A stretch of 64,000 bases of DNA, taken from contig CAZOAJ010000001.1 in assembly GCA_964577935.1 (NCBI GenBank), positions 14,208 through 78,207 on the forward strand. Reading direction: 5' to 3'. Every line of letters begins with the position of its first letter. Within the stretch, counting starts at the first letter, position 1. The DNA is from an uncultured bacterium. GTDB lineage: Bacteria > Chlamydiota > Chlamydiia > Chlamydiales > FEN-1388. The translations under genes were made by a program, and so were the position numbers. Under the pieces are notes generated by a model. It saw nothing but the letters and a program-made list of their open reading frames with translations. It was not told the DNA's origin and ran no database searches. Shown here in pieces: positions 41,685 to 49,114 of this stretch.

Positions 41685-42656
41685 ATGAATCCTAATCAAG
41701 CTCTCTCCAATAATTCTCAAACAATCGAAATACAAACATATTTAGATGAGCAAGATTTTCCTGCAGATGGGGACTCAACTGAACATGAGGATGATGCAAA
41801 AATCCGAGACCTCTTCGCGCGTGTGGCGATAGGTGCATCAAAATCAAAGCCTGCGGATAAATCCTGGCGTCTCTTTAGTTGCTTTGGAGCGCCTCATGAA
41901 GATGCTTGTGAAAAGTATCCTCATTTTACCGGGGCTGCAAAAAATATCATATCCCTTTGGCTCAAAAAAAAACTTCCGGTCGATTTTTTCCAGCAGGCCC
42001 AAAAATTGCTTACTATCGAAGAACACAAAAAACGATTTATTGAAAAAGGACTTACTCCGTTAATAGATGAATTTATTGACTTTCTTGCCACACTTGAAAT
42101 TGATACTCATCAAGATCATGTGGAATCAATTGCAGGGATATTCCGCGTAAGTGCTGCAAGGTCTGAAATCGATTCTGCTATGAAGAGTTTAATCCTCGAT
42201 ATGAAACTTCCTGATATGCTTCCGAGGCATGATAGGGTCTTACTTGTGGGGTCTCTTTTAAAGCAGTGCTGTCGTTGTCTGAGCTCGGGTGATATTTCAC
42301 TAGGTTTGCAAGTAAAGATAACAAAGAGTTTATTTTTGATTATAAAAGTTATGGAAAAAAAAGAGTTTAAGGATCCAGGTAAAATGGACATACGGACTCT
42401 TCGTATTGCAGCACCCGCTATATTTGATTTGATCAGCACGAGTCAGCTATTTGCTCAAATTTCTGAGGATGAGCAAAAAAGCGAATTTGGCCAGTTCATA
42501 GCTCAAATGCAATCGAAATCACAGTCGGCGATAGCAAGCAGTCATTTTACTATGGATGGTGCTCGTATGCGATTAGAGGCTTTACTCAAAAAAGAAAAAG
42601 GAATAACGAGTGGTGTCGATATGAGTCCTCTTGCTCCTGTGAATGTACATGAGTAG
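41685..42656 (+). CDS. hypothetical protein with eukaryotic RhoGAP-like arginine-finger motif; candidate T3SS effector
   Basis: TPLIDEFIDFLATLE...IAGIFRVSAARSEIDSAMKSL...DRVLLVGSLLKQCCRCL...KMDIRTLRIAAPAIFDLI lines up by eye with RhoGAP blocks of p50RhoGAP (PIVLRETVAYLQ...EGIFRRSANTQVVREVQQKY...LHLPAVILKTFLRELPEPL...KMTNTNLAVVFGPNLL). The putative finger Arg154 is encoded at 42144-42146. The N-terminal ~60 aa are acidic, polar and disordered-looking. An AGAGGAAG Shine-Dalgarno precedes the ATG. Confidence 0.5.
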   Translation: MNPNQALSNNSQTIEIQTYLDEQDFPADGDSTEHEDDAKIRDLFARVAIGASKSKPADKSWRLFSCFGAPHEDACEKYPHFTGAAKNIISLWLKKKLPVDFFQQAQKLLTIEEHKKRFIEKGLTPLIDEFIDFLATLEIDTHQDHVESIAGIFRVSAARSEIDSAMKSLILDMKLPDMLPRHDRVLLVGSLLKQCCRCLSSGDISLGLQVKITKSLFLIIKVMEKKEFKDPGKMDIRTLRIAAPAIFDLISTSQLFAQISEDEQKSEFGQFIAQMQSKSQSAIASSHFTMDGARMRLEALLKKEKGITSGVDMSPLAPVNVHE

Positions 42657-42714
42657 CCTGTAGAATCGAGTTTAATAGGCCAAATTCAAACTTCAGTAAT
42701 TGAATCGAACTACT

Positions 42715-48400: not shown

Positions 48401-49114
48401 CTTGGCGATCAGAAGATGCTCTATCGATCCGTGGCAGCAACCCATAGTGCACAGCTTTTGAGCGCCTTAAAGGATTCATCTTCAGTTGTTCCTTATATGC
48501 ATATATTTGCGCTGCTTTCTTCACTCAAGCAGATATCGAATCATCCAGCGACCTACCTTAAGGATATCGATAGCTATGAGAAATATGAGTCTGGTAAGTG
48601 GAATGTCTTTGTTGAGCTTCTTGAAGAGGCGCAGGAGAGCGGTTTAAAAGTTGTTGTCTTTTCACAGTATCTTGCAATGCTCGATATTATGACTAAATAC
48701 CTTGATTCATTAGGAATTGGGTACGCACAGATTCGAGGGCAGACGAAACGCCGTGGGGCCGAAATTTCAAGATTTCAAAACGATCCTGAATGTAAGGTCT
48801 TTTTAGGATCACTTCAGGCAGCAGGTCTCGGTATTGATTTAACCGCAGGATCTATTGTCATCCACTATGACCGATGGTGGAATGCTGCACGTGAAAACCA
48901 GGCTACCGATCGAGTTCATAGAATTGGGCAAGAACGTGGTGTGCAGGTCTATAAACTTGTCACAATCAATAGTATTGAAGAACGTATCGACCAGATGATT
49001 GCTCGTAAGGCATCCCTTCTTGAAGATGTTGTCAGCTGGGATGATCATCAAATTGTTAAAAAGCTTTCACGATCGGAACTTATTGAGCTTCTTGAAGGGC
49101 TGCAGGAAAAATAA
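45413..49114 (+). CDS. SNF2-family helicase/translocase with N-terminal SWIM zinc finger
   Basis: SWIM: CSSCDSSGHSLCVHVAAA (CxxC...CxH). SNF2 motifs: LLCDDMGVGKTHQAMALL (I), AIFDELQIAKN (II, DExQ), LTGTPIENQLRELKALFDLI (III) and, in the helicase C domain, QATDRVHRIGQERGVQVYKLV (VI). The GTG start at 45413 overlaps the stop of the Hsp70-like gene by 8 nt (GTGAGTAG). Confidence 0.92.
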   Translation: MSSGSSTVWDTIFPYYFQGETLKKSLSPADISYCGSVYQVLFSPEERSRALRADMEESEGDRPCVVLQLKEERNEGHVSYQPNDLFCSSCDSSGHSLCVHVAAACSFMYDFGLLPPHLFFEYSPWKTLFEGLADQHGYEDFRVQVKNQEAVSEVSISKGKKSPFLTFRGKQSVVRHIQEIFERPEETEENSIKFSTFDDEELDRYRKGRPSRRVKFALSRLCDLAQYLSLLHQMADGKTLFECKDKAGSFKISDDLEGSFVHNTVEEGAKLTILLQDHIYALHGIDESSGWKFIVANKRVLLRDQEIRDREKIGQLLDLLKTDLPKSLGGIRIESSQQRVNFSLDISRDSIRLIPYREVSGDLDDVLWAGRWVLSKKFGLFPIGMMPFAPASVFRGKEAAQFIKQNAHFLATIPGAKVHHCVQEEKVSYKVEASGALRFTVTESSESSSSSGPLYEFGSYCWVQGKGFYLKAGSVKTSIWPKVPLPPYQVSDFIRSNKEALTNIPGFFSTSSPLLEAGLKVICRENPQGKLSQIAIEPRFVWKAGIHPDEIKMYDEYAYLPLTPYKKSEEGFFSIPHAQTLFSQERVIESTDLDEWEHFLDSGLQQLAKEISCDIDSKLIPPEKLTLLATDIEESSLEERDMAALWQMSLCWESSKGKVSLEEVFEAKSKGHRFLPSNAGLLDLSQDRFAWVDSKKKKRKKQSEAAVSDRLELSSLDLIRLQAHDTIRFEQGSGSYAPIQLIERLLDMKPPRDPDMSLLNCNLRSYQQYGLQWLWYLYTNGLSGLLCDDMGVGKTHQAMALLAAVKADAAKFHRKPKFLIVCPTSLVWHWKEKLGQYVPSADVLAYFGTTRSDSALKECEVLLTTYGIWRNERKELQKLSFDVAIFDELQIAKNHSSLIWSALSDIKARMRLGLTGTPIENQLRELKALFDLILPGYMPDEYQFRELFIRPIEKGYMDTRKELLGRYVRPFILRRRKQDVLQDLPHKLEEIRHTELLGDQKMLYRSVAATHSAQLLSALKDSSSVVPYMHIFALLSSLKQISNHPATYLKDIDSYEKYESGKWNVFVELLEEAQESGLKVVVFSQYLAMLDIMTKYLDSLGIGYAQIRGQTKRRGAEISRFQNDPECKVFLGSLQAAGLGIDLTAGSIVIHYDRWWNAARENQATDRVHRIGQERGVQVYKLVTINSIEERIDQMIARKASLLEDVVSWDDHQIVKKLSRSELIELLEGLQEK

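Follow-up and report, generated by a model that had tools for sequence, protein, structure and literature searches.

The question raised by this locus is whether three closely packed genes encode one functional system. The locus lies in a 64,000-nt window from an uncultured bacterium of the Chlamydiales (contig CAZOAJ010000001.1 of assembly GCA_964577935.1), and all coordinates given without a locus name are those of this window. As a preliminary description based on the window sequence had it, three co-oriented open reading frames (ORFs) are located on the + strand: ORF1 (41685–42656; 323 aa, ATG start), the gene of an Hsp70-like protein with a C-terminal DUF3731 domain, which we call Hsp70L (42700–45420; 906 aa when read from a TTG; public gene calls start at the ATG at 42715 and give 901 aa), and the gene of an SNF2-family ATPase (45413–49114; 1233 aa, GTG start). 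The preliminary description had proposed that the Hsp70-like and SNF2 proteins form a dedicated module. Comparing gene neighbourhoods, we find it more probable that the locus is a lineage-specific juxtaposition of three functionally independent genes in a conserved chlamydial backbone.

We analyzed the conservation of the Hsp70L–SNF2 pair from both sides. For the Hsp70 side we took 80 genome loci of homologues together with 10-kb flanks, 27 of which are non-chlamydial loci of this atypical Hsp70 system, and an SNF2 ORF was found within 10 kb in none of these 27 loci and in none of the 80 loci overall. Starting from SNF2, we scanned metagenomes with the family alignment and obtained 55 loci with full-length orthologues carrying the subfamily-specific N-terminus, and the 42 loci with at least 2.8 kb of upstream sequence were considered assessable. 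An Hsp70 gene upstream of the SNF2 orthologue was observed in only 2 of the 42 (L148 and L088, the latter belonging to one contig with L083); a third metagenome SNF2 locus with Hsp70L upstream is the short L096, which is not among the 42. The alanine dehydrogenase (AlaDH) gene ends 45–440 nt 5′ of SNF2 in 17 loci, and der and sulP usually follow a few genes 3′. Regarding the chlamydia-type Hsp70-DUF3731 loci, SNF2 is located downstream in 8 of 11. It directly follows Hsp70L in the window, L083/L088, L085, L086/87, L096, L148 and L168, and does not follow it in L084 (where a convergent Ser/Thr kinase gene is found), L169 (BipA and MscS follow) and L170. The gene found most regularly 5′ of both chlamydial genes is AlaDH: leaving out the short L096, it precedes every Hsp70L–SNF2 pair with enough flanking sequence, and Der is encoded downstream wherever the sequence reaches that far. 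These counts (0 of 27, 2 of 42 and 8 of 11) reveal neither a conserved Hsp70L–SNF2 operon nor a reciprocal co-occurrence apart from the flanking synteny. The proposed module is therefore not supported by the neighbourhood comparison, as adjacency is confined to some chlamydial lineages and 40 of the 42 SNF2 loci have no Hsp70 gene. According to our reading, the SNF2 gene would normally lie directly after AlaDH and near der without an Hsp70 gene, and only the smaller part of the lineages would have the Hsp70 gene between AlaDH and SNF2.

In a neighbour-joining tree of the SNF2 orthologues the Hsp70-linked loci fall into two separate clades and are interleaved with loci lacking Hsp70. This split indicates that the Hsp70 gene was lost repeatedly at one junction with SNF2 being retained, repeated gain being the less likely course. 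The junctions themselves vary considerably: Hsp70L and SNF2 overlap by 8 nt in the window, by 20 nt in L083 and by 4 nt in L148, and are separated by 33 nt in L085 (12698–12729), 127 nt in L096, 150 nt in L168 and 368 nt in L086 (12713–13079), where the spacer is non-coding. Junctions which are equally tight or overlapping are observed between SMC and AlaDH (4-nt overlap in L085 and L086) as well as between AlaDH and Hsp70L (overlaps of 1–28 nt in L168, L169 and L170, and distances of 2–5 nt in L085, L086 and L148), from which it follows that tight packing is common between unrelated genes in this neighbourhood. For compact and highly syntenic chlamydial genomes this means that little about a shared function can be concluded from genes being overlapping or co-oriented. 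A TATAAT sequence is found 7–8 nt 5′ of the SNF2 ATG in the Parachlamydiaceae relatives L085 and L086, and may represent a leaderless or independent promoter. In L170 a 72-aa ORF with a DUF3731 match (9750–9968) is located just 3′ of an 863-aa Hsp70-DUF3731 gene, which suggests that the Hsp70 C-terminus was split by a frameshift or stop, a likely case of gene decay.

In the window itself it is plausible that the three genes are read as one transcript, as had been proposed. An intrinsic terminator is located on the + strand 3′ of the AlaDH gene at 41587–41622 (41593–41622 in the preliminary description). It is canonical, consisting of an A-tract, a 10-bp core stem CCGAGAATTA/TAATTCTCGG, a GATT loop and a U-tract, with a folding free energy of −18.6 kcal/mol and a z-score of −6.8 (0 of 200 shuffled sequences were equally stable). 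Promoter-like or terminator-like sites above the shuffled background were not found within the three-gene unit, and the SNF2 start overlaps the Hsp70L stop behind a Shine–Dalgarno sequence. From the upstream terminator, the absence of internal signals above background and this overlap, a single transcription unit appears plausible. An Rfam scan of the region from 40 to 50 kb gave no match. At the 3′ end, a perfect 12-bp hairpin is present between the convergent genes at 49133–49170, and it is stable on both strands (free energy −24.7 on the + strand and −23.0 on the − strand, z-scores −6.3 and −5.5), as described earlier; a U-tract is, however, absent on both strands. The hairpin touches the stop of a convergent 771-aa ORF (49169–51484, − strand). 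The coupling element between Hsp70L and SNF2 (45400–45420, + strand) comprises a GGAGGAG Shine–Dalgarno sequence at 45400–45406, 6 nt 5′ of the SNF2 GTG, and the 8-nt stop/start overlap GTGAGTAG at 45413–45420. The start of SNF2 was fixed by N-terminal alignment, the GTG at 45413 being the sole start codon 5′ of the conserved N-terminus (TVWD...). The elements on which translational coupling had been proposed are thus real in the sequence, but they are local and non-conserved, and we ascribe them to packing: the three genes would lie side by side, probably on one transcript in this lineage, and the overlap would couple translation locally and reflect tight gene packing rather than shared function.

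What kind of protein Hsp70L is can be judged from profile searches and a structural model. It matches the Pfam HSP70 family (PF00012) with 49 bits (cut-off 20.6), and the motifs DLGTT, EEP and D-GGGTTD are invariant over 116 sequences, which suggests that its nucleotide-binding domain (NBD) has ATP competence. An AlphaFold model calculated with 116 homologues (predicted local distance difference test score, pLDDT, 85.7; predicted template modelling score 0.79) contains the NBD, a β-sandwich substrate-binding domain (SBD; about residues 460–580) and an all-helical C-terminal region (597–885), and Foldseek aligned the NBD and SBD-β of this model with ATP-bound DnaK (4B9Q) at an expectation value (E) of 2e-22. 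Hsp70L hence shows both features by which the Hsp70 superfamily is recognized, the actin-fold NBD motifs and the β-sandwich SBD, and both had been correctly anticipated. In contrast, the C-terminal part of about 330 aa, which had been regarded as unassignable, is readily assigned by profile search: it matches Pfam DUF3731 (PF12531, ‘DnaK-related protein’) with 107.8 bits (cut-off 25), residues 662–824 corresponding to profile positions 7–171 of 248, and the tail is divergent. In the model this helical solenoid appears to take the place of the Hsp70 lid. Searching the PDB sequences with the DUF3731 profile returned only designed helical bundles (E about 0.04), and the domain has no match in PADLOC. 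We rejected an assignment of Hsp70L as canonical DnaK (41 bits compared to an NCBIfam cut-off of 648) and as HscA (43–44 bits compared to cut-offs of 620–709); the genuine dnaK is found together with hrcA and grpE at 22026–25948 of the window. The Hsp70-DUF3731 family is large, with at least 8000 matches in many phyla, and the closest homologues of Hsp70L come from Chlamydiales and Parachlamydiaceae assemblies.

Outside the chlamydiae the family has a recurrent genomic context of its own. Among the 27 loci with an atypical Hsp70 system, 21 non-chlamydial ones carry the DUF3731 protein itself, and 16 of these 21 show the same triad, in which a DUF2760 (PF10816) gene is followed by a gene for an Hsp70 paralogue of about 600 aa and one for an Hsp70-DUF3731 protein of about 930 aa. 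The triad was found in Proteobacteria, Planctomycetota, Acidobacteriota, Verrucomicrobiota, Bdellovibrionota and other phyla (loci L003, L005, L006, L008, L009, L011–L013, L018–L020, L022, L024, L026 and L031; in L005, for example, at 7395–12799). Moreover, three proteins of about 1500 aa from Polyangiaceae and metagenomes (P0003, P0004 and P0005) are end-to-end fusions of both Hsp70 paralogues, the N-terminal half resembling the 600-aa paralogue (50–54% identity) and the C-terminal half the full-length Hsp70-DUF3731 protein (35–39% identity). Such fusions constitute a Rosetta-stone link and imply that the two paralogues would pair physically. Operon conservation and natural fusions together point to the 600-aa paralogue and the DUF2760 protein as the probable true partners of Hsp70L. 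A metagenome-assembled genome of the Parachlamydiaceae (L017, 9047–11310) encodes DUF2760 (159 aa) and a 603-aa Hsp70 paralogue with no DUF3731 protein downstream, and because this is a separate locus, chlamydiae would appear to have split the triad over two loci and not to have replaced it. When the 64-kb window was searched by tblastn with the 600-aa paralogue, only Hsp70L itself and dnaK were found.

Compared to the large member of the triad, Hsp70L shares the architecture (NBD, SBD-β and DUF3731) and 28–38% identity over nearly the full length. It differs in that the chlamydia-type gene lies apart from those of DUF2760 and the 600-aa paralogue, between AlaDH and SNF2, and in that the window copy aligns with no more than the first two-thirds of the DUF3731 profile. 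A second comparison is offered by the Hsp110/Sse1–Hsp70 complexes (3C7N, 3D2E), in which a large protein with NBD, SBD-β and an enlarged helical C-terminus works with a smaller Hsp70 partner, and Sse1 chains were indeed among the Foldseek matches of the Hsp70L model. The C-terminus of Hsp70L is, however, the DUF3731 helical domain and not the Hsp110 lid, and this domain has no sequence relative in the PDB, so that the likeness is one of mechanism only. By analogy with Hsp110:Hsp70, and from the fusions and operons, Hsp70L probably still works with the paralogue of about 600 aa as a two-Hsp70 heterodimer. In the paper library searched, literature on DUF3731, on DUF2760 together with Hsp70, or on atypical bacterial Hsp70 operons was not found. 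We also followed Myxococcus StkA as a lead and rejected it, since StkA shares its operon with an SCP2-like protein and a small PhaE-like protein and not with DUF2760 or DUF3731. We regard the widespread triad as a candidate two-Hsp70 machine, which would be a second, dedicated one in bacteria, and as a stronger lead than the pair in the window.

The third gene was correctly recognized as SNF2, with matches of 203 bits to SNF2-rel_dom and 64.6 bits to Helicase_C in Pfam and with the motifs GxGKT, DExx, TGTP and QATDRVHRIGQ invariant in the family alignment. Its helicase core (residues about 757–1228) finds the closest solved chain in the SNF2/Rad54 core of Sulfolobus solfataricus SSO1653 (1Z63, E 3e-84), the match covering residues 759–1228 with all motifs intact. 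E. coli RapA, the RNA-polymerase recycling factor, is the best-studied bacterial SNF2 protein; it does not appear among the 60 PDB sequences that matched best. The difference from SSO1653 is a chlamydia-type N-terminal region of about 750 aa with a SWIM-like finger, which is fast-evolving yet alignable among relatives; it gave no match in Pfam, and a word-indexed search with it retrieved 7 proteins. Within this region the family alignment shows no variation at C87, C98 and H100, the Cys/His pattern being FCSC...C.H in relatives and CSSC...CVH in the window. The SWIM label given earlier stands to the extent of this motif, but Pfam SWIM (PF04434; CxCxnCxH) did not match the protein at E ≤0.1. 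As judged from its sequence, the 1233-aa protein is a putative core chlamydial double-stranded-DNA translocase of the SSO1653 type with a SWIM-like N-terminus. For the chlamydial SNF2 genes CT555 and CT708 we found nothing functional in the literature.

ORF1 had been described as RhoGAP-like. Its predicted model contains a disordered N-terminus of about 100 aa followed by a helical core (residues 100–280; core pLDDT about 65–93), and a GIFRVS arginine-finger-like motif lies within this core. ORF1 gave no match in Pfam, NCBIfam or PADLOC, and none among PDB sequences; its profile retrieved only noise from the PDB (CFTR and designed proteins), and a word-indexed homologue search found only ORF1 itself. 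An exhaustive search of 1.8 billion representatives yielded only P0129 and P0130 as credible homologues, both of them distant; a third candidate, P0131, was rejected as a spurious PKD-repeat match. P0130 matches Pfam RhoGAP (PF00620) with 21.9 bits, below the cut-off of 24.5, over the arginine-finger region, and G[IL]FR is common to ORF1, P0129 (GLFR) and P0130. At the ORF1 position (8220–10004) of L083, the closest relative, we observed two tandem paralogous ORFs of 283 and 294 aa with 44–46% mutual identity. Their relationship to ORF1 is distant (24% identity, E 9e-8), and both lack GIFR. Foldseek placed RhoGAP domains on all of the top 12 ranks when the ORF1 model was compared to the PDB, albeit non-significantly (E 0.1–0.9; template modelling score, TM, at most 0.41). 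Measured against eukaryotic RhoGAPs (p50RhoGAP/Cdc42GAP; 1GRN, 1TX4), ORF1 thus has GIFRVS at the place of the arginine finger, RhoGAP domains as its best fold matches and a homologue just under the Pfam threshold, whereas it has no Pfam match of its own, no fold match below E 0.1 or above TM 0.41, and an arginine that the L083 paralogues do not share. The earlier label therefore agrees with consistent weak signals from fold and homologues but not with any significant Pfam or fold match, and we consider it reasonable but unproven. Literature linking RhoGAP and Parachlamydia was not found. Among the chlamydia-type Hsp70L loci, genes of the ORF1 type are confined to the window and to L083, where they are duplicated, and no ORF1 is present between AlaDH and Hsp70L in L085, L086, L148, L168, L169 and L170; ORF1 is specific to its lineage, young and fast-evolving, and is not a conserved component. 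Given its disordered N-terminus and a type III secretion system in the organism, ORF1 would most likely be a secreted effector switching off host Rho-family GTPases, and it is a lead worth keeping, being a candidate effector with a eukaryote-like RhoGAP domain in an amoeba-associated chlamydia.

Several points weigh against three independent genes. Hsp70L lies immediately 5′ of SNF2 on one strand in at least seven chlamydia-type lineages whose Hsp70L proteins share only 34–50% identity with that of the window, and in three of these lineages stop and start overlap (8, 20 and 4 nt). The figure of 2 in 42 refers to position at the SNF2 locus. The metagenome loci come without taxonomy, their chlamydial origin being deduced from synteny and similarity, and the search for the DUF2760 and 600-aa partners covered the 64-kb window. 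Given the recurrent adjacency, some lineage-specific functional link between Hsp70L and SNF2 may exist. Its most explicit form would be a chlamydia-specific module in which Hsp70-DUF3731, split from its canonical partners and co-translated with SNF2 in matched amounts, was recruited for loading, unloading or recycling the SNF2 translocase or the nucleoprotein on which SNF2 acts. In its favour, the adjacency is old and recurrent, stop and start overlap in three lineages, and the partners of Hsp70L are encoded at a separate locus in a Parachlamydiaceae genome, but this explanation has to accommodate the 40 of 42 SNF2 loci without Hsp70, three chlamydia-type Hsp70L loci without SNF2, gaps of 33–368 nt with TATAAT just 5′ of the SNF2 ATG in L085 and L086, and AlaDH–Hsp70L and SMC–AlaDH junctions which are equally tight though the genes are unrelated. 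Furthermore, the entire neighbourhood is syntenic, so that adjacency is expected without shared function. For these reasons we consider such recruitment unlikely, and similarly doubtful is its narrower form, in which an uncoupled Hsp70-DUF3731 would act on the SWIM-SNF2 translocase or its nucleoprotein complex in one or two environmental chlamydia clades, the overlaps setting the stoichiometry. If true, the pair would be a bacterial remodeller of chromatin or transcription that works with the aid of a chaperone.

Independence of the three genes remains the reading we prefer when two further explanations are weighed, both of which are very improbable. A defence or stress module had been suggested for the locus, and in its anti-phage form an SNF2 helicase resembling Zorya ZorD, Dpd DpdE or DISARM DrmD would be combined with an Hsp70-like sensor. 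The PADLOC models of DpdE (E 1e-113) and ZorD (2e-95) do match the SNF2 protein; these matches are, however, confined to the generic helicase core (residues about 757–1219), and the NCBIfam scores are far below the equivalog cut-offs (213 compared to 1500 for ZorD, 28 compared to 500 for DpdE and 51 compared to 950 for DrmD). A parallel for Hsp70L is provided by CnuD (CnuCD) of the McrBC-related type III CoCoNuT systems, in which an Hsp70-like NBD/SBD is followed by HEAT-like helical repeats (PMC11090510). Hsp70L resembles it in having an NBD/SBD followed by a helical region, a comparison of architecture and not of sequence, but the ATPase motifs of CnuD are predicted to be degenerate (PMC11090510) and those of the Hsp70L family are invariant. 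Genes for ZorABC, Dpd, Drm, McrB, McrC or HEPN proteins were not found nearby, the neighbours are housekeeping genes syntenic across chlamydiae, the composition is flat, and PADLOC contains no match to DUF3731. Nor was the pair seen, in the loci compared, within a variable defence island of any other phylum. It would be just as surprising if the three genes made up an effector cassette directed at the host, in which Hsp70L served as secretion chaperone for the effector ORF1. The disordered N-terminus and RhoGAP-like signals of ORF1 and a type III secretion cluster at a distance of 7 kb are in accordance with this idea. ORF1 is, however, missing from most lineages that keep Hsp70L, and Hsp70-DUF3731 proteins are widespread in free-living bacteria. 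Type III secretion chaperones are, moreover, small dimeric proteins and not Hsp70s.

The wider neighbourhood consists of a conserved housekeeping backbone and is not a defence island. The window also encodes VIT1, a P-type ATPase, glutamate dehydrogenase, hrcA-grpE-dnaK, a Ser/Thr kinase and SMC, after which come a 2961-aa DUF3638 protein, AlaDH (40397–41557, + strand; Pfam AlaDh_PNT_N/C), the three genes, Der, SulP and the type III secretion cluster, with a flat GC content of 0.40–0.44. The products of the type III secretion cluster (56555–62307, − strand) are a secretin (GspD_N0/Secretin), a Ser/Thr protein kinase and a FliN/SctQ-type protein. Its presence agrees with a chlamydial origin and with a possible secretion of ORF1. 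The 771-aa ORF between SNF2 and der has no match in Pfam, is not similar by BLAST to the 812-aa ORF found at the matching position of L083, and appears to be another fast-evolving gene. Three giant ORFs are present at 31475–40360 (+ strand, 2961 aa), 8114–16822 (− strand, 2902 aa) and 3941–7912 (− strand, 1323 aa), and only the 2961-aa ORF has a Pfam match (DUF3638, 43.8 bits). A 3058-aa counterpart is found at its position in L083. In the window the 2961-aa ORF separates SMC and AlaDH, which directly adjoin in the Parachlamydiaceae relatives.

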